IMG/VR virus record: IMGVR_UViG_3300013901_000001
DNA from: a virus
Strand: one strand, 5' to 3'
Length of the DNA stretch: 64,000 bases
Part shown: piece after piece, positions 3,893-57,835 of the stretch
Numbering within the stretch: position 1 is the stretch's first letter
Layout of the letters: each line of letters begins with the position of its first letter
Notes under the pieces: generated by a model
The model's input: only the letters and a program-made list of their open reading frames with translations
What the model was told of the DNA's origin: nothing
Databases searched by the model: none
Position numbers and translations under genes: made by a program

Positions 3893-4120
3893 ATGAGAGT
3901 TATAAGTCAGGACGGAACACTTGATATTCCATATGAAGGTCATATATTCGGTGCAAGCACGGAAGAAAATTGCATAATAGCGGTACATTTTAAAAACCCT
4001 AGCCCATGTATGGATTGGTATTCTACGCAAGAAAAAGCACTTAAGGCTCTTAAAATGTTGCGCGAAGCGCGTAAAAACGGATGCGTAGTATTTCAGTTTT
4101 CAAAGGAAGATGAGGTGTGA
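3893..4120 (+). CDS. hypothetical protein
   Basis: AAAGGAG 7 nt upstream of ATG 3893. Confidence 0.5.
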   Translation: MRVISQDGTLDIPYEGHIFGASTEENCIIAVHFKNPSPCMDWYSTQEKALKALKMLREARKNGCVVFQFSKEDEV

Positions 4121-4122
4121 AA

Positions 4123-4479
4123 ATGAAGATTATTGAGGGAAAAGAAAAAGAATACAAGGAATGGTACGACAAAAACAGCGATTCTTATAGCAGAGCGTGT
4201 TTTACATTCGCTGAAAGATGGGCGGGACTTTTGGAAGAAAAAATAGACAACTCTTCCGATTGTCCGATGAAGGTAATTGTCGATAACGCAAAACAATTAA
4301 GTGATGAAGCAAACACAGAAAGAATCACGGGATTTATGTATGGTTGTTCTGTTAATATTCTATCAAGAGTGTGGAAATACGGTGATGAATTAAGAATGTG
4401 GCACAATGGAAAATACAATTATCAGGGCGAAGGAACTGTAAACCCGGCTATTCTTACGGTTGGTGGCAAAGATGATTAA
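4123..4479 (+). CDS. hypothetical protein
   Basis: GAGGTG upstream of ATG 4123; overlaps previous stop. Confidence 0.5.
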   Translation: MKIIEGKEKEYKEWYDKNSDSYSRACFTFAERWAGLLEEKIDNSSDCPMKVIVDNAKQLSDEANTERITGFMYGCSVNILSRVWKYGDELRMWHNGKYNYQGEGTVNPAILTVGGKDD

Positions 4480-5176
4480 TCTGAAATGCTTATCTTCCGG
4501 AAGTAAAGGAAATTGCTATCTTCTGGAAGCTGATAACGGAGAAGTCCTTATCATTGATGCCGGAATACCAATCATGGATATTAAGCGTGGTCTGAACTGG
4601 AATGTGAGAAGTGTAGTCGGTGCGGTTATTACGCACCGGCACACAGACCATAGTAAAAGCATTGATGATTTACGGCACATGGGAATAAGAGTTGTTGCAC
4701 CGTATGAATCCGGAAACGTAAAGTCCATGAGTTTTTCACTGGGAAGTTTTAGAATACAGGCTTTTGATGTTTCGCACAACGGCTGTTGGAATAACGGATT
4801 TCTGATTAAGACTTCGGACGGACAGAAAATCTTGTATATGACCGATTTGGAGTACTGCCCGTATTCTTTCCGGAAGCAGAGCGTAGACCATATGCTTATC
4901 GAGTGCAATTACATGAAATCACTGGTTGACACGGACGCTCCGAATTACGTCCACAAGATTCGAGGTCACTGTGAACTGGAAACGACAAAAGGAATTGTCA
5001 AGGAGAATGCGACAGATAGCCTTGTAAACGTTATATTGTGCCATTTAGGACGTGATACTTGCGAAGAGGACAAAGTTATCGAAGAAGTGAAAAAGATCGT
5101 TCCTAGAGTCATTGTGGACGTTGCGAAAGGCGGCAAGGAATGGATTTTAAGAAAGGTCGGTGAGTGTCCGTTTTGA
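4472..5176 (+). CDS. metallo-beta-lactamase-fold hydrolase (possible recombination nuclease)
   Basis: HRHTDHS = HxHxDH motif; sits between the RecT-like gene and SSB. Confidence 0.7.
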   Translation: MINLKCLSSGSKGNCYLLEADNGEVLIIDAGIPIMDIKRGLNWNVRSVVGAVITHRHTDHSKSIDDLRHMGIRVVAPYESGNVKSMSFSLGSFRIQAFDVSHNGCWNNGFLIKTSDGQKILYMTDLEYCPYSFRKQSVDHMLIECNYMKSLVDTDAPNYVHKIRGHCELETTKGIVKENATDSLVNVILCHLGRDTCEEDKVIEEVKKIVPRVIVDVAKGGKEWILRKVGECPF

Positions 5177-6176: not shown

Positions 6177-6452
6177 GAGGGTGCTTCCGTGAATCAGATG
6201 AACATATTTGATTTAATTAGAAAACCTATACAGATTACAAAGCCGATTCGTCTCATAGAATTATTTGCCGGGTATGGAAGCCAATCAATGGCATTGAAAA
6301 GAATTGGTGCAAACTTTGAGCATTATAGGGTTGTGGAATTTGATAAGTTTGCCATTGCAAGCTATAACGCAGTGCACGGAACAAATTTTCAAGCATTGGA
6401 CATTACAAAAATTCATGCAAATGATTTGAACATCTGTGATACAGAATCATTC

Positions 6453-6474
6453 ACTTACTTACTTACTTACTTAC
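6453..6474 (+). repeat. tetranucleotide repeat (ACTT)5+AC inside the methyltransferase, just before motif IV
   Basis: Read directly; removing one unit gives ...SFTYLLTYSFPCTDLS... in one frame. Confidence 0.95.
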
Positions 6475-6950
6475 TCGTTTCCTTGCACAGATCTTTCCGT
6501 AGCTGGGAAACGAGCCGGAATGAGTAAAGAAAGTGGAACAAGATCTGGACTTCTGTGGGAAGTGGAAAGAATACTTACTGAAATCAAAGAAGAAAAAGAA
6601 GAACTTCCACAGATTTTATTTATGGAGAATGTACCACAAGTGCATAGTTCGGATAATATGCCGGATTTTAGAAAATGGATAGATTTTCTTGAAAGCCTTG
6701 GTTACAAAAATTATTATCAGGACCTTAACGCAAAAAATTATGGAGTGGCGCAAAACCGTGAACGATGTTTTATGTTTTCGTTTCTTGGAGAATATAATTA
6801 CCATTTTCCACAGCCGTTTCCTCTTGAAAAGAAGTTAAAGGATTATTTGGAAGATAATGTTGATGAAAAGTATTACATCAATAATGAAAAATCCAAAAAG
6901 TTGATAAAGCAGCTTATTGACAACGGAACACTTCCTCAACACAATCTTGA

Positions 6951-7005
6951 GAGCAGAGCAGAGCAGAGCAGAGCAGAGCAGAGCAGAGCAGAGCAGAGCA
7001 GAGCA
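6951..7005 (+). repeat. pentanucleotide repeat (GAGCA)11 inside the methyltransferase
   Basis: Read directly; encodes (EQSRA)n in all three frames, so there is no stop in any frame. Confidence 0.95.
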
Positions 7006-7294
7006 AACTTGCGTTGACGGAACAATCTGCAATCCACAAAGAAGAAAGATTGCGAACTGTATCATGGCAAGAGACTACGGAATCTCAACACAGTCACAGA
7101 CAGGAAACCTTGTTGTTAAAAGGAATGTCAAGTAATAAATACGATCCATATGCAGAAAAAGCAGATATTTCAAGAACCATATGCGCTAGGGATTATAAGG
7201 GCTTAAATAATTTTGGACAGAATGGAGTAATTGAATGGAAATCATAGGAAGTATATACACGGGAGTTTCAGACGGATATCAGCACGGAATCTTA

Positions 7295-7418: not shown

Positions 7419-7427
7419 GGGGGGGGG
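7419..7427 (+). repeat. G9 homopolymer at a frame break in the methyltransferase
   Basis: G10 would join ...SRIYGVGGG to VSPTLSTMQGGNQ. Confidence 0.9.
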
Positions 7428-7989
7428 TGAGTCCTACGTTAAGCACAATGCAAGGTGGTAATCAAAAACCGAAAATACTTGAAGTAAAACAGCTAGGATT
7501 TATGGAAAACGGAACTGGAAAACATCAGTCCAATACTGTATACGATGAAAACTCATTATCCCCTAGCATAACAACGGTTGAAAATGGTGGTACGCAACAG
7601 ATTAAAATATGCGAAAGCCAAATAGTTGCCATGCGTGGAAGAAATCCAGATAATCCGTCCGACAGAACTGCAGGAAGTCCAACGGAACAAAGACTTGAAT
7701 TAAATAAACATGAAACAAGTAATTGCATTACAAGTGTTCAAAAAGACAATATGGTTATGGAAAATCCCACATATCGCATAAGAAAACTTACCCCGAGAGA
7801 ATGCGGTAGACTTATGGATGTATCAGACGAAGATATTTCCAAAATGGAAAAGGTAAATAGCAACACGCAGCTATACAAACAGTTTGGAAATTCTATTGTA
7901 GTAGGTGTTATGTGCGAGATGTTTAAAAATTTAAACATAAATCAATAAGACCGGACAGTTCCGGTTTGCATAGTTTGGAGGAAAAGAAA

Positions 7990-8556
7990 ATGAAAGTAAA
8001 AAGAACAGTAACAATGAAAGTTAGCCATTTTGGGGTTGGAGACCAGATTACCGTAAAACTTCCAGAATACGGAAAGTTTACGGCTATGGCACATGAGATC
8101 ACGGACAAAGGAACATTATTTATCTTCGATGATTGTGTTTGCGAAAGATGGATGAACAAAGAAAATACGAATGAAGGTGGATATTTGGAATCTGACCTTA
8201 GAAAGTTTGTAACACAGGAGTTGCTAAAGGCATTTCCAGATAAACTGCTTGTAAGGATGGTAAAGGACGATAACGGAGATCTACTTTCCATTCCGACTTA
8301 CGGACAGGTTTTGGGTAAAGACTGGGACGATGAGTGGGATGAGAAAAACATTGAGATCGACAAGAGAGAACAATTGCCACTGATGCAGAAAAGAAAGAAC
8401 CGGATTGCAGATTTACAAAACGAATGGACATGGTACTGGTTGCAAAATAAAGTCCGGTCGTCGTCTCACTTCGCTCGCGTCGATGGCGATGGCCGTGCGG
8501 CCAACTACGGCGCGTCTGGCTCCGGCGGGGTTCGTCCGGCTTTCCTAATCAAGTAA
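7990..8556 (+). CDS. DGR target protein 1 (C-type-lectin-like variable C-terminus)
   Basis: GGAGG then ATG 7990; ends ...WYWLQNKVRSSSHFARVDGDGRAANYGASGSGGVRPAFLIK; 3' end matches the TR. Confidence 0.85.
   Translation: MKVKRTVTMKVSHFGVGDQITVKLPEYGKFTAMAHEITDKGTLFIFDDCVCERWMNKENTNEGGYLESDLRKFVTQELLKAFPDKLLVRMVKDDNGDLLSIPTYGQVLGKDWDDEWDEKNIEIDKREQLPLMQKRKNRIADLQNEWTWYWLQNKVRSSSHFARVDGDGRAANYGASGSGGVRPAFLIK
8453..8538 (+). repeat. DGR variable repeat VR1
   Basis: Gap-free match to TR 56391-56476; 17 of 18 differences are at TR adenines. Confidence 0.85.
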
Positions 8557-8564
8557 TCATTAAT

Positions 8565-8585
8565 CCGCGCCCCTTGTGGGCGTGG
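8565..8585 (+). promoter_or_regulatory. GC-rich hairpin downstream of VR1 (DGR homing-associated type)
   Basis: CCGCGCCC-CTTGT-GGGCGTGG, 8 bp including one G-T pair, 27 nt after the VR. Confidence 0.7.
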
Positions 8586-8621
8586 AAATGGAAGTAAATT
8601 GAAGATTAATGGAGGTAAACC

Positions 8622-9758: not shown

Positions 9759-11135
9759 ATGGATTACGAAGAGTTTTTAAAGAATAAAAGATTTGTTTTA
9801 GAAAGTAGTGGATTCGATATTGATAAATCCCAATTAAATCCGATGCTATACGACTTTCAGAAAGACATAGTTCGGTGGGCATTGAAGAAAGGAAAAGCCT
9901 GTATATTTGCAGATTGCGGACTTGGGAAAACACCTATGCAGTTATCGTGGGCGCATCAAGTTCACATGCATACTGGTGGGGATGTTCTTATTCTTACACC
10001 ATTAGCTGTTGCCGAACAGACAAAGCGAGAGGCTGAAAAATTCGGATATGATGCAAAAGTAGTTGATAAACAGGATGATTGCATCAACGGAATAAATATA
10101 ACGAACTATGAAAAGCTGGACAGGTTTGCTGCGAATCATTTTTCCGGAATTGTTCTTGATGAGAGCAGTATTTTGAAATCTTACAGTGGAAAAGTAAGAA
10201 CTGCCATTATTCAGAATTTCCATGAAGTTCCTTACAAATTAGCTTGCACAGCTACTCCAGCACCAAACGATTATATGGAATTGGGGAATCATTCGGAATT
10301 TTGTGGAGTGATGACAAGACCAGAAATGCTATCAATGTTCTTTGTGCATGATGGTGGAGAAACATCGAAATGGAGATTGAAAGGTCATGCAGAGGATGTG
10401 TTCTGGCAGTGGCTATCTACATTTAGCGTATTTGTTGATAATCCGAACAATATCGGATACGAGATTGATGGATATAATCTACCAGAACTTAAAATAAAAG
10501 AAATAATTGTGGATGGGGATACGACAACAACAGAGAACTTGACATTAACAGAACGGAGACAAGCGAGAAAGGATAGCTTGCAAAAAAGATGCGAATGTGC
10601 ATCAGAACTTGTAAATAATTCTAATGAGCAATGGCTTGTATGGTGTGACTTGAATGATGAAAGCCATAAGCTGCATGAATTAATCGAAGAAAGCGTTGAA
10701 GTTGAGGGAAGTGATAAAGAACAACACAAGTCTTCAGCCATGCTTGATTTTAGCAATGGGAATATAAAGTGTCTTGTTACAAAACCTAAAATTGCCGGAT
10801 TTGGGATGAATTGGCAGAACTGTCATAACATGATTTTTACCGGACTTTCGGATAGTTATGAGCAGTATTATCAGGCTCTCCGCAGATGTTGGAGATTTGG
10901 CCAGAGTGAACAGGTGAATGTTTATATTATCATTTCATCAAAAGAAGGATGCGTGAAAGAAAACATTGAAAGAAAGCAGAAAGACTTTGCAAAAATGCAG
11001 AAAGAAATGACAGAACTCACAAAGGAAATAACAAAAAAAGAACTAAGGAGTACGTGTAGGATTTCCACACCATATGAACCGCAAATACATCTAACTTTAC
11101 CGATGTGGGATGAATTTAAGAAAGGAAATGAATAG
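9759..11135 (+). CDS. SNF2/DEAD-like superfamily 2 helicase
   Basis: GLGKT Walker A, DESS box, TATPAPN, QALRRCWRFGQ motif VI. Confidence 0.85.
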   Translation: MDYEEFLKNKRFVLESSGFDIDKSQLNPMLYDFQKDIVRWALKKGKACIFADCGLGKTPMQLSWAHQVHMHTGGDVLILTPLAVAEQTKREAEKFGYDAKVVDKQDDCINGINITNYEKLDRFAANHFSGIVLDESSILKSYSGKVRTAIIQNFHEVPYKLACTATPAPNDYMELGNHSEFCGVMTRPEMLSMFFVHDGGETSKWRLKGHAEDVFWQWLSTFSVFVDNPNNIGYEIDGYNLPELKIKEIIVDGDTTTTENLTLTERRQARKDSLQKRCECASELVNNSNEQWLVWCDLNDESHKLHELIEESVEVEGSDKEQHKSSAMLDFSNGNIKCLVTKPKIAGFGMNWQNCHNMIFTGLSDSYEQYYQALRRCWRFGQSEQVNVYIIISSKEGCVKENIERKQKDFAKMQKEMTELTKEITKKELRSTCRISTPYEPQIHLTLPMWDEFKKGNE

Positions 11136-14705: not shown

Positions 14706-15275
14706 ATGAAAGCATGGAGAAAAGTAAAAATGGAGATCAAAAACTATAAGGTCGGAGATCAGATCGCGGTGAAACTCAAAGGTTTTGGGAAATTTACGGC
14801 TACGGCGCAGAGAGTTTATGACGATGGAAAAACGCTGTTTCTTTTCGATAACTGCGTTGCAGAACGGCATATGAACGAAAACGGTTCAAATTCCGGAGGT
14901 TTTTATGAATCCGACTTATGCAAGTGGATGAATACAAAATTGGTGAAAACTTTTCCTGCTAAACTTCTTGACCGCATGATTTATACGGACGAAGAGCATG
15001 AATGTCTGCTTCGAATTCCGACAAGAAAGGAAATGTTCGGAGAGAATGAATATAGCGAAAATTACGAACCTGATTTAGACAAACAGCTTGAACTTATGAA
15101 AGACAGAAAAAATCGTGTATGCTCACTTCCTGATGATGAATATGCATGGTATTGGTTGATGAACGCGAATATCCGGTCGTCGTCTGGCTTCGCTTGTGTC
15201 CCTAGCCGTGGCACTGCGCTCACCGGCGACGCGTCTGCCTCCCTCGGGGTTCGTCCGGCTTTCCTAATCAAGTAA
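14706..15275 (+). CDS. DGR target protein 2, paralogue of target 1
   Basis: GGAGG then ATG 14706; VGDQIAVKL...GGFYESDL...WYWLMNANIRSSSGFACVPSRGTALTGDASASLGVRPAFLIK. Confidence 0.85.
   Translation: MKAWRKVKMEIKNYKVGDQIAVKLKGFGKFTATAQRVYDDGKTLFLFDNCVAERHMNENGSNSGGFYESDLCKWMNTKLVKTFPAKLLDRMIYTDEEHECLLRIPTRKEMFGENEYSENYEPDLDKQLELMKDRKNRVCSLPDDEYAWYWLMNANIRSSSGFACVPSRGTALTGDASASLGVRPAFLIK
15170..15257 (+). repeat. DGR variable repeat VR2
   Basis: 88-nt gap-free match to the TR; all 19 differences are at TR adenines. Confidence 0.9.
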
Positions 15276-15283
15276 TCATTAAT

Positions 15284-15304
15284 CCGCGCCCCTTGTGGGC
15301 GTGG
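15284..15304 (+). promoter_or_regulatory. GC-rich hairpin downstream of VR2
   Basis: Identical to the VR1 hairpin; the ~70 nt after both stops are identical. Confidence 0.7.
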
Positions 15305-15341
15305 AAATGGAAGTAAAATTAAAATTTCGGAGGTAAAGTAG

Positions 15342-15929
15342 ATGGCACGATATAGAGCAAAATCATGTGAAATTGAAGCAATTCAATGGACTGATAATAC
15401 AAATGAAATAAAATCATTTTGTGGAAATAGTTGCACATATTCCGTAGAAGAACAGTGCATGGGAAGTTGGAAAGGCATTCCGATCGAGAGATTGGTTATT
15501 CACACATTGGAAGGAGATATGGTTGTAAGCAGAAACGACTACATCATAAAAGGATTGAAAGGTGAATTTTATCCATGCAAGCCAGATGTATTTAACCAAA
15601 AGTATAAATTAATAAATGATACTATGGAAATACAAGAAGAGCAGAGATGGATACCGGTAACTGAAAGGCTGCCGGAAGAACTTACACCAGTAAATATTAC
15701 GTGGATAAATAGAAATCCTGAACAATATTATGCGGATATAAAGGATGTTCCTTTTTCCGCTACAGGAGTTTTTCATCGCGGAAAGTGGTATTGGTGGTCG
15801 GTAGTAGTTGTTGATTATCTTTCGGAATATGGAAGATATGACATGGATTTAGTAGATAAAGATATTGAAATTGTAGCATGGCAACCATTACCGGATCCCT
15901 ACAAAGGAGAAAATAACCACAATATGTAG
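15342..15929 (+). CDS. DUF551-like domain protein
   Basis: C-terminal WIPVTERLPEE...VAWQPLPDPY pattern. Confidence 0.55.
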   Translation: MARYRAKSCEIEAIQWTDNTNEIKSFCGNSCTYSVEEQCMGSWKGIPIERLVIHTLEGDMVVSRNDYIIKGLKGEFYPCKPDVFNQKYKLINDTMEIQEEQRWIPVTERLPEELTPVNITWINRNPEQYYADIKDVPFSATGVFHRGKWYWWSVVVVDYLSEYGRYDMDLVDKDIEIVAWQPLPDPYKGENNHNM

Positions 15930-15956
15930 CAATCCCGGATCGCAAGATTTGGTATG
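15914..15956. repeat. 43-bp repeat, copy 1 (imperfect palindrome; candidate recombinase or regulator site)
   Basis: TAACCACAATATGTAGCAATCCCGGATCGCAAGATTTGGTATG; 40/43 identical to 28374-28416, same orientation. Confidence 0.85.
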
Positions 15957-28373: not shown

Positions 28374-28416
28374 TAACCACAATATATAGCAATCCCGGAT
28401 CGCAAGATATTGTATG
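28374..28416. repeat. 43-bp repeat, copy 2 (better palindrome)
   Basis: TAACCACAATATATAGCAATCCCGGATCGCAAGATATTGTATG; 17-nt arms around the central C match at 14/17. Confidence 0.85.
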
Positions 28417-29830: not shown

Positions 29831-29910
29831 GACGGGAAACCGCCCTTTTTCTTTGCGATTCTGGACGATAACGCTATATAGAATGTTATATAACAAGATA
29901 TATAATAAGC

Positions 29911-30005
29911 TATATAATAATTCATATATGGTAATTCTTATATAGTAATTCTGTATGATATTTACTATATAATAATTCTGTGTTATAATTACTATATAGT
30001 AATTC
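29911..30005. repeat. iteron array TATATA(A/G)TAATTC x4 at ~27-bp spacing
   Basis: Copies at 29911, 29939, 29966, 29993, plus degenerate half-copies between them. Confidence 0.8.
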
Positions 30006-30036
30006 ATATATAATAATCACAACAGGAGGTTTTACA

Positions 30037-30839: not shown

Positions 30840-30859
30840 AACACTACTGATATACCTAA

Positions 30860-30982
30860 ACAATCTCAACGTAAATAAAGCCAATAAACTATCGTTTAGC
30901 CAATACATTGTTTTTATAACACTCTCAACGTAAATACTACTAATAACTTACCGTGTAGCCAATAACTTATATTTATAACACC
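30860..30982. repeat. two ~59-nt tandem direct repeats (CTCAACGTAAATA...TAGCCAATA...TTTATAACAC)
   Basis: Units start at 30865 and 30924; roughly three quarters identical by eye. Confidence 0.7.
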
Positions 30983-33441: not shown

Positions 33442-33514
33442 AGGGATATCGCCAAGCGGTAAAGGCACAGGATTTTGATTCCTGTATTCGTGGGTTCGAA
33501 TCCCACTATCCCCG
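33442..33514 (+). tRNA. tRNA-Gln (anticodon UUG), no encoded CCA
   Basis: Cloverleaf folded by hand: TCGCCAAGCGGTAAAGGCA D-arm, CAGGA-TTTTGAT-TCCTG, GTGGG-TTCGAAT-CCCAC. Close to my recollection of E. coli tRNA-Gln. Position 1-72 is A-C. Confidence 0.8.
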
Positions 33515-33982: not shown

Positions 33983-34747
33983 ATGATCTTGAATTGCATA
34001 AACTGTGGTGCACCGATTGATAATACAAAAACAAAATGCCCGTATTGCGACACTCCATATAAGTTAAATGGATTTGCTGGTGAGATTTCAGAGGAAAGTA
34101 ACTGCGGAGTGTTGAATATAGGCGGTCATTTCTACGATGACTATTTGTCCAGTGTAGAGGTAGGGGATTACGGATACATGGGATATAGGGATGCCACAGG
34201 AAGGTCGATAAGAGAAGTAAGAAACATTCACAGAACGTTACGTTGGAGACTTACTAACATGATGATAAATATTTTGTTTCTTGTGGATTCAATAGAAGAC
34301 GCTGCATTAGAAACATACATAACTGAAAATGTCGTGAAAGATAAACGAGGGATTTTTGACATTGATTACGAATATGCGATGATAAGCATTAATAACATAA
34401 AAGTGTGGTTTTGCGCTCCAGAAGCTGAAAGATGCATTTCTCCAATATTGTTTTGTGATTGTGTAGTTGTAGATGTAAATACGGCTAAAGGAATTTTGGA
34501 AAAAGAAAATCTGCAAAGAATGCGTAAAACGATACCGTTTTATGACAGATCTTGTTTTTATAAGACAATGATTGACGAATGGGAGAGGAAGAACGTGAAA
34601 AAGAGTATTATTGACCGTTGGAAGAAGCATGGAGAATTTACAAGGCGTTGCATGATAGCCGGATTTTCAAAAGATTTTATTCCTACACGGTTTGAATATG
34701 CAATTACAGGCACTAAACTTCATAAGTTAATCTATGGGAGAAACTAA
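33983..34747 (+). CDS. zinc-ribbon N-terminal hypothetical protein
   Basis: CINCGAP..CPYCDTPY; 254 aa. Confidence 0.5.
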   Translation: MILNCINCGAPIDNTKTKCPYCDTPYKLNGFAGEISEESNCGVLNIGGHFYDDYLSSVEVGDYGYMGYRDATGRSIREVRNIHRTLRWRLTNMMINILFLVDSIEDAALETYITENVVKDKRGIFDIDYEYAMISINNIKVWFCAPEAERCISPILFCDCVVVDVNTAKGILEKENLQRMRKTIPFYDRSCFYKTMIDEWERKNVKKSIIDRWKKHGEFTRRCMIAGFSKDFIPTRFEYAITGTKLHKLIYGRN

Positions 34748-35092: not shown

Positions 35093-35265
35093 AAAAGAAA
35101 ATGGAACGGATTATTGACTTTTTGGATTCTTTTTTCTATTATCCAAAGATGAAGAGATATTTTATCAATAAGGGGTTGTTTAGCTACAATCCTTGGCAAG
35201 ATGAAAAATTTGCCAGAATAAAATATGCGTGGTGGCATTGTCATCACGGAAGATTGAGAGATTAA
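35089..35265 (+). CDS. small hypothetical protein (58 aa)
   Basis: ATGA overlap with the upstream gene; below the ORF-track cutoff. Confidence 0.35.
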   Translation: MKKKMERIIDFLDSFFYYPKMKRYFINKGLFSYNPWQDEKFARIKYAWWHCHHGRLRD

Positions 35266-54948: not shown

Positions 54949-55788
54949 ATGGCAATTAATAAAGTGGAATATAGCGGAAATACATTAATTGACTTGACTT
55001 CTGACAGCGTAACACCGGAATCTTTACTTTCCGGCGTTACCGCACATGATGCGTCTGGAAATTTGATTATAGGAGAACTTAATCCGCAAAGAATATTTGA
55101 TAATGCCGGATATCACAACAGTATTTTTCGTGGAAAGAACTTGGGAACGGCTGTTCCGGAAGAACAATACGAAGCTATTTCTTCCGGAGAGTTCACGGAT
55201 TTGTATGTAGGTGATTACTGGACTTTAAACAACGTTGTTTACCGTATTGCCGGATTTGATCTGTTTTTACATACGGGGGATACAGAGTTAACAACGCATC
55301 ATGTTGTTATTGTGCCGGATAAAAATATGTACAGTCACGTGATGAATGATACAAATGTGACCACCGGCGGTTACTACAATAGCAAAATGAAACAAAGTGG
55401 TCTGACACAGGCTCTGACTACGGTAAAGGCGGCATTCGGTGAAAGCCACATAGTAAAAAGAAGAGTAATTTTAACAAATGCCACAAATGGAGATAATCCA
55501 TCCGGATGGGCGTGGTACGATACCTACATTGACCTTATGACAGAACGGCAGGTATATGGATCTCCTGCATGGGGACAGGCGGCACATAATGGATATGATG
55601 CCGGATGTGAGTATTCAAGACTTCCGTTGTTTGCACTTGCACCGGAATTTATCACAAATAGAGAATGGTATTGGCTACGAGATATCCGGTCGTCGTCTGG
55701 CTTCGCTGGTGTCTCTGGCCAGGGCCGTGCGACCGACGCCGACGCGTCTCGCTTCGGCGGGGTTCGTCCGCTTTTTTTAATCTCTTAA
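54949..55788 (+). CDS. DGR target protein 3 (fibre-attachment N-terminus plus variable lectin-like C-terminus)
   Basis: Ends ...EWYWLRDIRSSSGFAGVSGQGRATDADASRFGGVRPLFLIS. Confidence 0.9.
   Translation: MAINKVEYSGNTLIDLTSDSVTPESLLSGVTAHDASGNLIIGELNPQRIFDNAGYHNSIFRGKNLGTAVPEEQYEAISSGEFTDLYVGDYWTLNNVVYRIAGFDLFLHTGDTELTTHHVVIVPDKNMYSHVMNDTNVTTGGYYNSKMKQSGLTQALTTVKAAFGESHIVKRRVILTNATNGDNPSGWAWYDTYIDLMTERQVYGSPAWGQAAHNGYDAGCEYSRLPLFALAPEFITNREWYWLRDIRSSSGFAGVSGQGRATDADASRFGGVRPLFLIS
55683..55770 (+). repeat. DGR variable repeat VR3
   Basis: 88-nt gap-free match to the TR; 19 of 21 differences are at TR adenines. Confidence 0.9.
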
Positions 55789-55798
55789 TCGTCAATCA

Positions 55799-55838: not shown

Positions 55839-56366
55839 ATGTCAGAAATACCAAAGTCAAGAAGAAAAGAATCAAAATTAGAAGTAATTCACAAAGCGTA
55901 TAAATTACGAGCTAGAATAACAAATGAACTAATATGCAGCTTCGGATATTCTCAAAAGAAATATGAAGCACATTTAAACAAAGCGGTAAGACATATTCGG
56001 GACGAAACAGAACGCGAGGAAAAGAAAGAAGTTCTGCGCAAAATGGAAGGAAATTTTGATTTCTGGATTATTGAAAAAGAAAGAGACGATATTCTACATT
56101 ACACAAAAGGAATCGTAAATCATCTTATATCTGCAAACACAATATATCCGGTTAATGTATCGGAATATGAAGAACGCAGATTGGAAATGGATAGAGCGTT
56201 GGTGTGTTGCACGTGTCTTCAACAGGAATTGCAGTACATCGCAGAAGTTCTTCCGTCTGACAAGAATAAGTACATGAACATAGTGCTTGAAATTCAAACG
56301 ATCCGAGAAATGATAAAAGGGCTTCGCCAATCCGACAACAGATTTTTAAGAGATATCAATAAATAA
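55839..56366 (+). CDS. avd: DGR accessory variability determinant (Avd-like)
   Basis: GAAAGGAG then ATG 55839; basic helical 175-aa protein between the target and the TR. Confidence 0.7.
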   Translation: MSEIPKSRRKESKLEVIHKAYKLRARITNELICSFGYSQKKYEAHLNKAVRHIRDETEREEKKEVLRKMEGNFDFWIIEKERDDILHYTKGIVNHLISANTIYPVNVSEYEERRLEMDRALVCCTCLQQELQYIAEVLPSDKNKYMNIVLEIQTIREMIKGLRQSDNRFLRDINK

Positions 56367-56388: not shown

Positions 56389-56476
56389 TATCCAGTCGTC
56401 GTCTAACTTCGCTAATGTCAATAGCAATGGCAATGCGAACAACAACGACGCGTCTAACTCCAACGGGGTTCGTCCG
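56389..56476 (+). repeat. DGR template repeat (TR)
   Basis: Non-coding; 23 adenines, variable codons AAC/AAT; matches VR1-3; ends in GGGGTTCGTCCG. Confidence 0.9.
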
Positions 56477-56611
56477 ATTTCACAACTACCTACTTGACAT
56501 AGATTCTACTGGTAGCAATGGGAAAGGAAAGGTTATCCGTTCAGCGGAAGCTGATAAAAGAAAATTCCGATATGCCGAGTTACGACAAGGTATTAGAAAC
56601 GGGGTTAAAAT

Positions 56612-57835
56612 ATGAATCCATTAATAGATGCAAATAGTTTATATGACGCCGGAACATTGGCGATAAAAAGTAGCAGCTTCAAGTACAAAACGCAATTATT
56701 TGAAATGAACCATCTTTTGGAAACTGCATTATTACAGAAAGAATTGCAAGAAGGAACGTACAGACCGGAAAAAGGAACAAAATTTCTGATCCATGAAAGA
56801 GGAAAAATCAGATACATCACAAGCAATACCATGAGAGATAAAACAGTCAATCATGTGTTGTGTGATGAAATCGTCACACCATCCATAGAAAAATATTTGA
56901 TCTATGATAATAGTGCTTCACAGAAAGGCAAGGGGATTTCTTTTGCCAGAAAGAGACTGGAAGAACATTTGCATAGTTATTATAGGAAATACGGGACAAA
57001 TGACGGCTACATCTTGTTGATGGATTTTTCAGGTTATTATGCGAATATTCCACACGATAAATGCAAGGACATTCTGTATAGAATGGTTTTCCGAGACGGA
57101 CTTGAAGAAGAACCGACCAAAGCAGTGATTGAAAATATTTTTAAATCCTACGAAATGGATGTTTCATATATGTCTGATAAAGAAATAAAAGTCTTGTATA
57201 GCACAAAGGTAGATCCTGTAATGAACCAAAACGTTCCGAAAGAATTGCTTACAGAACAAAAGATGCTAAAGAAAGGAGCGGACATAGGAAATCAGCTTGC
57301 TCAAGCAATAGGAATTACTTTTCCTTATAAGATTGATAATTATGTGAAAATCGTAAGAGGATGCAAATTTTACGCCAGATATACGGATGACAGCTATATT
57401 ATTTCGAGCGATAGGGAATTTTTGTTTGATGTTTTGGACGGTATTAAAGAAATTGCGGATGAACATGGAATCATATTGAACAAAAAGAAAACGAGGATAG
57501 TAAAGATTTCCTCGTTTTTCAGATTTATGCAGATAGGATATTCCCTAACTGCCACAGGAAAAGTGATAAAGAAAATAAATCCTAAAAATGTGAGAAGGGA
57601 AAGGGTGAAGCTGAAAAAATATAAAAATTTGTTAGATAATGGAAAAATGACATATGCAGACATAGAAAATTGCTTTAAGTCTTGGATATGTACATACTGG
57701 AAAATTATGTCGCACCAACAATTATACAATATGAACGCCCTGTATAAGGAGCTGTTTGGAAAGGGAATAAAATGGAAAACGAAAAATTCACGATTACATT
57801 GGCTGATGGAACACAAATCACCGGACTTTCGATGA
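56612..57835 (+). CDS. DGR reverse transcriptase
   Basis: RYTDDSYII (YxDD box), IGNQLAQ, finger/palm spacing; directly downstream of the TR. Confidence 0.9.
   Translation: MNPLIDANSLYDAGTLAIKSSSFKYKTQLFEMNHLLETALLQKELQEGTYRPEKGTKFLIHERGKIRYITSNTMRDKTVNHVLCDEIVTPSIEKYLIYDNSASQKGKGISFARKRLEEHLHSYYRKYGTNDGYILLMDFSGYYANIPHDKCKDILYRMVFRDGLEEEPTKAVIENIFKSYEMDVSYMSDKEIKVLYSTKVDPVMNQNVPKELLTEQKMLKKGADIGNQLAQAIGITFPYKIDNYVKIVRGCKFYARYTDDSYIISSDREFLFDVLDGIKEIADEHGIILNKKKTRIVKISSFFRFMQIGYSLTATGKVIKKINPKNVRRERVKLKKYKNLLDNGKMTYADIENCFKSWICTYWKIMSHQQLYNMNALYKELFGKGIKWKTKNSRLHWLMEHKSPDFR

Follow-up and report, generated by a model that had tools for sequence, protein, structure and literature searches.

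A non-adjacent variable repeat in a small DUF6273 gene, very probably an active target of the single diversity-generating retroelement of a gut phage

The virus record IMGVR_UViG_3300013901_000001 provided the stretch of DNA analysed here (“the window”, one strand of 64,000 nucleotides, nt), and our subject is a small gene at 14706-15275 whose 3′ end is a variable repeat (VR) of a diversity-generating retroelement (DGR). A repeat search over the whole window found four copies of one ~90-nt unit, starting at 8451, 15170, 55683 and 56389 and all lying on the + strand; a whole-window scan returned exactly three copies of the VR type and one template repeat (TR). The copy at 56389-56476 is the TR, as it is adenine-rich and sits between an Avd-like open reading frame (ORF) and a gene for a reverse transcriptase (RT), and the other three are referred to as VR1 (8451-8538), VR2 and VR3 (55683-55770). 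The features at VR2 are listed here together with the TR:

14706-15275, + strand: VR2 target gene, 189 amino acids (aa); small N-terminal β-barrel followed by a DUF6273/C-type-lectin-like domain, with the VR forming the C-terminal 30 residues
15170-15257, + strand: VR2, 88 nt homologous to the TR; the positions that actually vary are confined to 15175-15244
15245-15317, + strand: module of 73 nt, 100% identical to 8526-8598 downstream of VR1
15246-15257, + strand: GC-rich core, GGGGTTCGTCCG, of the initiation of mutagenic homing (IMH) site, shared without change by the TR and the three VRs; both mutagenesis and homology to the TR stop here on the 3′ side
15266-15284, + strand: triple AATC motif, AATCAAGTAATCATTAATC, extending from the final codons across the stop codon into the 3′ untranslated region
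15283-15305, + strand: hairpin/cruciform from a DNA fold, with a 9-bp stem TCCGCGCCC/GGGCGTGGA (15283-15291/15297-15305) that includes one G-T pair, and the loop CTTGT
56389-56476, + strand: TR; most of its 24 adenines belong to AAC/AAT codons when read in the VR2 frame

A start of the gene at 14706 is reasonable, given a GGAGG 7-8 nt upstream and its use in most public gene calls (189 aa); the stop codon is the TAA at 15273-15275.

Realignment of VR2 with the TR agreed with an earlier note on this DNA in being gap-free: of the 88 aligned nt, 69 are identical and 19 differ. Each differing site is a TR adenine (19/19, of 24 available) and every non-adenine site is identical (64/64), a pattern with p = 4.8e-15 under random placement. 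The replacements at TR adenines are G at eight sites, C at eight and T at three, and the adenine is retained at five. Translated in the VR2 frame the TR reads I-Q-S-S-S-N-F-A-N-V-N-S-N-G-N-A-N-N-N-D-A-S-N-S-N-G-V-R-P, and this AAC/AAT codon design is typical of DGR templates. VR1 differs from the TR by 18 adenine changes and two others (one affecting the first base of the repeat), and VR3 by 19 adenine changes and two others, so that VR2 is indeed the cleanest of the three, as the earlier note had it. That note had gone on to suggest recent homing, a step which the counts do not bear out: 0/64 and 2/64 non-adenine changes do not differ significantly (Fisher p = 0.50), and the use of non-adenine changes as a homing clock was dropped as statistically empty. 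Such changes are sporadic and allele-specific, with none in four other VR3 alleles and one, S160A, in a single VR2 allele. The cleanliness of VR2 tells nothing reliable about the time of homing, and population turnover is the better evidence for ongoing homing.

The diversification of VR2 was judged from natural genomes only, namely public assemblies of the same ~67-kb gut phage (public contigs of this phage and of relatives are labelled L001 onwards). An identical RT protein is found on at least 23 contigs, and the TR is base-for-base identical to that of the window in six other assemblies. Against this invariant template, three VR2 alleles are known at the DNA level; those of L005/L006 and L007 differ from the TR at 19 and 14 adenine sites and at no other site, with the 70 nt upstream of VR2 and the 3′ module identical to the window. 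At the protein level, 30 genes at least 86% identical (the listed sequences of two 90%-identity clusters around the window protein) encode 26 distinct VR2 peptides. Within residues 93-189 of these genes there are 14 variable columns, which are 13 adenine-containing TR codons and the singleton S160A; 13 of the 14 adenine-containing codons vary, the exception being an invariant ATC at the extreme 5′ edge of the homology. The flanking DNA and the rest of the genomes are 98.9-100% identical among the allele carriers, and the turnover of VR2 therefore lies far above the background mutation rate. VR3 differs between assemblies at adenine sites only, and a second allele of VR1 is known which differs at adenine codons. 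One copy of the TR itself departs from the rest, at 9778-9865 of L008 (ERZ26859195 NODE_285), where four A-to-G changes at the 3′ end give the VR-type GTCTGGCTCCGGCGGGG; this could be a TR/VR assembly chimera or a rare VR-to-TR conversion.

Beyond the last mutable adenine all three VRs have the same set of elements, the IMH core, the triple AATC motif and, at a constant distance, a GC-rich hairpin; the flank of the TR has neither the AATC segment nor the hairpin. Immediately 3′ of GGGGTTCGTCCG the two kinds of repeat diverge, with GCTTTCCTAATC in the VR and ATTTCACAAC in the TR. The pattern AATC-N3-5-AATC-N3-5-AATC occurs at three sites on both strands of the 64 kb (15266-15284, 8547-8565 and 55779-55797), each between a VR and its hairpin and none after the TR; the motifs, spaced ~8 nt apart, are conserved in relatives, and the segment may well be, and probably is, the distal part of the IMH. 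The hairpin that the earlier note had placed at 15284-15304 is present, these positions being the core of the 9-bp stem-loop. Among 11 distinct flanks, from paralogues and relatives, the stems include CCGCGCCC, CCACGCCC, TCCGGGC, CCGCCC and TCGACAC at a constant position. Changes on both sides occur in five of the nine pairs, 91.9% of the cells are paired as against 34-57% with a slid partner, and the observed level of covariation was matched in 0/500 shuffles; across these flanks it is the structure of the hairpin which is conserved and not the sequence of its stem. No T-run follows the VR2 hairpin and no intrinsic terminator was found 3′ of VR2; the absence of a T-run in the window led us to reject the hairpin as merely a terminator, although a T-run is present in the distant relative L025. 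In the Bordetella phage BPP-1, an IMH with its downstream hairpin suffices to target a heterologous gene, and the structure of the stem matters where its sequence does not (Guo et al., 2011, PMC3240598). By analogy with BPP-1, the IMH and hairpin at VR2 would serve in targeting. The 3′ flank of VR2 thus has in cis what a homing-competent target should have, namely a GC-rich IMH and a hairpin of conserved structure that is missing after the TR, and VR2 is diversified in populations; here the earlier note's description of the flank holds good.

Several observations weigh against VR2 as an active target. The window allele is unchanged in four assemblies (L016-L019) whose genomes show 100% or 99.99% identity; they probably come from linked samples or are reassemblies, rather than being independent, but the recurrence means that turnover is not so fast that every sample differs. 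The same VR2 peptide is found on two N-terminal scaffold haplotypes (P0122/P0135 and P0128/P0139) with 12 residue differences at positions 21-80, which points to recombination within the target gene between co-circulating lineages, and part of the variation between genomes could derive from recombination in place of independent homing. The case for activity is built on genome comparison. Were VR2 a fossil, once targeted or copied from a targeted paralogue, its adenine pattern would record a single past event; the constancy of the window allele in four assemblies would suit such a history, as would the report that some two-VR Faecalibacterium phages have no read-level signal at their VRs (PMC11792537). 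We consider this very unlikely, and largely refuted by the population data, since 26 VR2 peptides are encoded by 30 near-identical genes in which the adenine codons vary and the rest of the C-terminal half is invariant, the L005 and L007 alleles have no non-adenine changes against an unchanged TR, and the IMH and hairpin of VR2 are intact and match those of VR1 exactly. The adenine pattern, the canonical cassette, the natural diversification against an unchanged TR, the covarying hairpin, the AATC motif confined to VR flanks, the BPP-1 precedent and the like architecture of the cultured Acutalibacter phage Fontainebleau together mark VR2 as a genuine remote VR of the DGR in the window, as first proposed, and very probably as an active, non-adjacent target of the single DGR of a ~67-kb temperate gut phage.

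The identical flanks of VR1 and VR2 call for a separate explanation. The earlier note had ~70 nt after the stop codon in common between them: an identical run of 73 nt is real, but it begins inside the ORF, its first 31 nt ending with the stop codon, so that no more than 42 nt (15276-15317) are downstream of the gene. The note's further proposal, that the 3′ module was duplicated along with the gene, is not borne out by the synonymous divergence. Outside the VR the two genes share 51% protein and 57% DNA identity with saturated synonymous sites (proportion of synonymous differences, pS, 0.88), whereas from the VR onward pS is 0.03, as expected of two copies from one TR, and the 60 nt beyond TR homology, 42 of them non-coding and none templated by the TR, are 100% identical. 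Plain inheritance from a gene duplication, with no homogenisation, would account for the equal architecture of the two paralogues and for their common C-terminal peptide AFLIK; it is nonetheless improbable for a non-templated flank that is unchanged between such old paralogues. The identity must instead be maintained by purifying selection on homing signals, by gene conversion, or by both. Substitutions in the hairpin are also shared by both loci within a genome: in the lineage of the window both flanks have CCGCGCCC-CTTGT, and in L001 both have CCACGCCC-CGTGT, a state found also in L002, L020, L024 and L027. As both loci of one genome carry the same two non-templated substitutions, either concerted evolution or very strong selection would be needed, and these two sites are suggestive of concerted evolution, through gene conversion over the ~150 nt of VR and module, acting in addition to purifying selection. 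A repeat collapsed or swapped during assembly could in principle produce the same identity, and public contigs (L006, L007, L017, L018 and L019) do start or end exactly at the 73-nt module, which assemblers therefore treat as a repeat. Such an artefact is extremely unlikely, however, given that contigs from SPAdes, MEGAHIT and Logan show both loci base for base with unique sequence on either side, that the diverged relative L001 has both loci in unchanged gene order, and that the 73-nt repeat is shorter than a read; collapse of the flanks was excluded, three assemblers having reproduced both loci with unique flanks.

The short 73-nt repeat, together with the heterogeneity of the VRs, does break short-read assemblies of the phage. 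In L020 (a Hadza gut contig of 143 kb) and in L027/L028 the VR2-type gene is kept and the VR1 paralogue is absent at the equivalent place, so that close relatives differ in how many small targets they have.

The VR2 protein matches Pfam DUF6273 (PF19789) over residues 40-189 of 189 at 44.2 bits (cut-off 23.5) and phrog_21980 with E 5e-45. An AlphaFold2 model on a deep alignment (predicted local distance difference test, pLDDT, 92; predicted template-modelling score, pTM, 0.88) has a small N-terminal β-barrel, which is Tudor/KOW-like, and then a mixed α/β domain of which the VR forms the last three strands; no signal peptide was found in the protein. In Foldseek searches the model matched DUF6273 phage proteins in BFVD, some of them annotated as tail fibre or receptor-binding protein, with E down to 1e-10 and template-modelling (TM) scores of 0.7-0.78, as well as the Thomasclavelia IgA peptidase 9qa6 (E 3e-4), 8q4e and the C-terminal domain of Legionella Lcl; matches to classical C-type lectins were weak (E about 1). 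The N-terminal domain of 9qa6 is a DUF6273 domain (PMC12402451), and DUF6273 is described as C-type-lectin-like with the VR on a surface β-hairpin (PMC10743442; bioRxiv 10.1101/2024.10.15.618418).

The remaining parts of the DGR, and the paralogous target, are:

54949-55788, + strand: adjacent (cis) target gene in the tail module, with VR3 at 55683-55770
55839-56366, + strand: Avd-like accessory gene of 175 aa, flanked by the adjacent target gene and the TR; weak match to phrog_3206, and gene calls in relatives
56477-56611, + strand: spacer between TR and RT, with neither the AATC motif nor a hairpin at the position seen in the targets
56612-57835, + strand: DGR reverse transcriptase, 407 aa
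7990-8556, + strand: VR1 gene, the paralogous remote target, with VR1 at 8451-8538

The order target, Avd-like gene, TR and RT is canonical and the cassette looks intact. The RT matches Pfam RVT_1 (E 7e-13) and phrog_1423 (E 1e-50), and its best solved relative is 8ub7, a chain which we take to be the BPP-1 RT (the database label is “reverse transcriptase”); IGNQLAQ in the one aligns with IGSLTSQ in the other, as does the catalytic YTDD with YMDD, and the positions of IGNQLAQ and YTDD are presumably those of DGR signature motifs. An NCBIfam search gave no family-level call for the RT, the Avd-like protein or the targets; for the RT, that collection holds no DGR-specific model, and its group II intron and retron models matched below threshold. 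The assignment of the accessory gene as Avd is weak, and this too counts against the proposed system: its match to phrog_3206, “Avd protein of DGR”, is weak (E 1.4e-4), and searches of Pfam, NCBIfam and the PDB with this ORF found no match.

On this layout a mechanism can be proposed for VR2 which follows the BPP-1 paradigm, notably for the RNA and cDNA intermediates and for the role of Avd. The TR and the spacer downstream of it would be transcribed, the spacer forming part of the DGR RNA as in BPP-1, and the RT, with the Avd-like protein, would copy the TR into cDNA, misincorporating opposite template adenines. The cDNA would then replace the 88 nt homologous to it in the 3′-terminal part of the gene at 14706-15275, the target being recognised in trans through the 3′ module, that is, the GC-rich IMH core, the AATC-repeat segment and the hairpin/cruciform at its fixed distance. 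The outcome would be 13 randomised codons on the C-terminal β-hairpin of a small DUF6273 protein, and hence a population of ligand-binding variants.

The window covers 64 kb of a circularly permuted genome of ~67.3 kb, and public contigs of 66-69 kb close the 3.3-kb gap. The early region starts at ~62 kb and continues around the circle as far as ~18 kb; it encodes AntA, SSB, a Tad4 homologue, a metallo-β-lactamase (MBL)-fold protein, a C5 methylase, the VR1 gene and an SNF2 helicase, followed by an N6/N4 methylase, DnaD-like and G39P-like (helicase loader) proteins, a helix-turn-helix regulator, the VR2 gene, DUF551 proteins, a resolvase and an integrase. Genes for packaging, head and tail occupy ~33-54 kb; the DGR cassette comes next, and the lysis genes, with a divergent repressor, are last. 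Going downstream from the TR around the circle, VR1 is reached after about 19.5 kb and VR2 after about 26 kb; within the window VR2 and the TR are 41 kb apart. An Mtd-like target would be expected in a tail or structural module; the VR2 gene is in the early region, with the structural genes ~18 kb downstream, a position which does not exclude a virion role.

Relatives of the phage come from human gut metagenomes, and its nearest cultured homologues are Acutalibacter and Roseburia phages. Searching GenBank phages by megablast with the VR2 and cassette regions gave no match, nor did exact-pattern scans of IMG/VR with the VR2 upstream flank, the 3′ module and the TR skeleton; protein-guided scans of IMG/VR found five loci only. 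No hit was obtained in GTDB genomes with the target alignment, and with the RT there were only fragments, 49-50% identical, in metagenome-assembled genomes of doubtful binning.

Several other features of the genome were observed. The Tad4 (Thoeris inhibitor) homologue (4117-4479; Pfam E 2e-31) and the MBL-fold protein after it (4460-5176), which has a faint Apyc1-like signal in precomputed matches, are counter-defence genes, and share the early region with VR1 and VR2. The C5 DNA methylase (PF00145; 6189-7948) contains a perfect (AGAGC) × 11.2 repeat at 6950-7005 and is split into ORFs at 6189-6527, 6436-7017, 7014-7247 and 7427-7948, whereas L020 and L028 have an intact protein of 329 aa and no repeat; the split gene could be a phase-variable (slipped-strand) methyltransferase or a pseudogene. 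A direct repeat of 43 nt at 15914-15956 and 28374-28416, TAACCACAATAT[G/A]TAGCAATCCCGGATCGCAAGAT..., is 93% identical between unrelated flanks, and its first copy overlaps the last codons of the gene at 15342-15929 and reaches the start of the ORF at 15949. AT-rich tandem arrays with periods of 12-41 nt at 29868-30017 and 30859-30981, with a 59-nt unit present twice, lie in a gene-poor stretch and may be an origin or regulatory region. The sole Rfam match is a tRNA-Gln (anticodon TTG) at 33442-33514, just upstream of the packaging module.

The placement of the small targets raises the question of their function. They sit in the replication or early module on at least three unrelated backbones, those of this phage, of the Acutalibacter phage Fontainebleau and of L029, in which the small target follows an SNF2 helicase; in this phage they are near counter-defence genes (Tad4, methylases), and they have a Tudor/KOW-like N-terminal barrel and no signal peptide. 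For these reasons the small DUF6273 proteins could be early non-structural binders in place of virion receptor-binding proteins, tracking a variable host factor inside the cell or in its envelope, such as a defence protein or a superinfection-related receptor. We regard a non-virion function of this kind as rather unlikely, given that the position of a gene is by itself weak evidence and that receptor binding is the role proposed in the literature.

Among known systems, the DGR of Bordetella phage BPP-1, with its mtd VR, avd, TR and brt, was reportedly described by Liu and colleagues in 2002. The present DGR resembles it in the adenine-specific transfer from TR to VR, in a VR at the 3′ end of a gene with a C-type-lectin fold, in the GC-rich IMH at the end of the VR, in a GC-rich hairpin 3′ of the VR and not of the TR, whose structure is kept while the stem is free to vary, and in the order of target, avd (here a putative Avd-like gene), TR and RT. 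Unlike BPP-1, the phage has three targets, of which two are separated from the TR by 19-26 kb of the circular genome; these remote targets are small proteins of 189 aa from the early/replication region and not the tip of a tail fibre, the loop of the hairpin is 5 nt (C-N-T-G-T), and a triple AATC segment lies between IMH core and hairpin.

The closest published parallels are in gut phages. In the Faecalibacterium phages Lelie and CP11 there are two DUF6273 targets, one large and one small (PMC11792537), and in Toutatisvirus a second DUF6273 VR lies 17.5 kb upstream of the TR (bioRxiv 10.1101/2024.10.15.618418). These too are phages of gut Clostridia in which one TR serves an adjacent and a distant target, both DUF6273 with a C-terminal VR, and in which variation across genomes peaks, and adenine conservation is lost, at both VRs; they differ from the present phage in having two VRs where there are three here, two of them in paralogous small targets, and the sequences are distant, with no megablast match. 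In the sections consulted of PMC11792537 and bioRxiv 10.1101/2024.10.15.618418, the 3′ module and concerted evolution are not analysed.

The cultured Acutalibacter phage Fontainebleau (ON453893) offers a further comparison, with a remote VR at 9801-9917, an adjacent VR at 34391-34507 and a TR at 35106-35222. Its small DUF6273 homologue is 42% identical and lies between DNA polymerase I and a helicase; as here, the remote VR differs from the TR at adenines only, the adjacent target, Avd, TR and RT come after tail genes, and a GC-rich hairpin follows each VR. The backbone is different, being 39 kb with PolA-type replication and a single remote target. The record describes this remote target as a hypothetical protein only, and the DGR layout is apparently unannotated.

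Several C-lectin/DUF6273 targets for one DGR are also known from the two-target DGRs of the gut phages nd4 and nd12, with Tentaclin and Mtd-like targets (PMC10743442), and from Treponema denticola, a cellular DGR with many targets (cited in PMC5758913). These differ from the present case in that the VR domain of tentaclin is N-terminal, accompanied by Ig-like domains and adjoining the cassette, and that the Treponema targets are cellular lipoproteins. In the survey of Wu et al. non-adjacent targets were found in 45/372 DGRs; those of phage-associated DGRs lay within a distance of ~50 kb, the usual arrangement being one adjacent target plus a single non-adjacent one (PMC5758913).

Gut phages with non-adjacent DUF6273 targets are thus already in the literature, and the present locus is a well-supported further example, distinguished by its three VRs, two of them in paralogous small targets. 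Modestly new are the explicit 3′ module including the AATC triplet, the apparent concerted evolution, and the recurrent early/replication placement on unrelated backbones. The phage provides a clean natural demonstration of one DGR serving three targets in trans, and the definition of the 3′ module is useful for annotating remote VRs missed by cassette-centred tools and for engineering DGR targeting. Small DGR-diversified lectin-like proteins among the early/replication genes of gut Clostridia phages are a recurrent and unexplained theme, one which the cultured phage Fontainebleau makes open to experiment.

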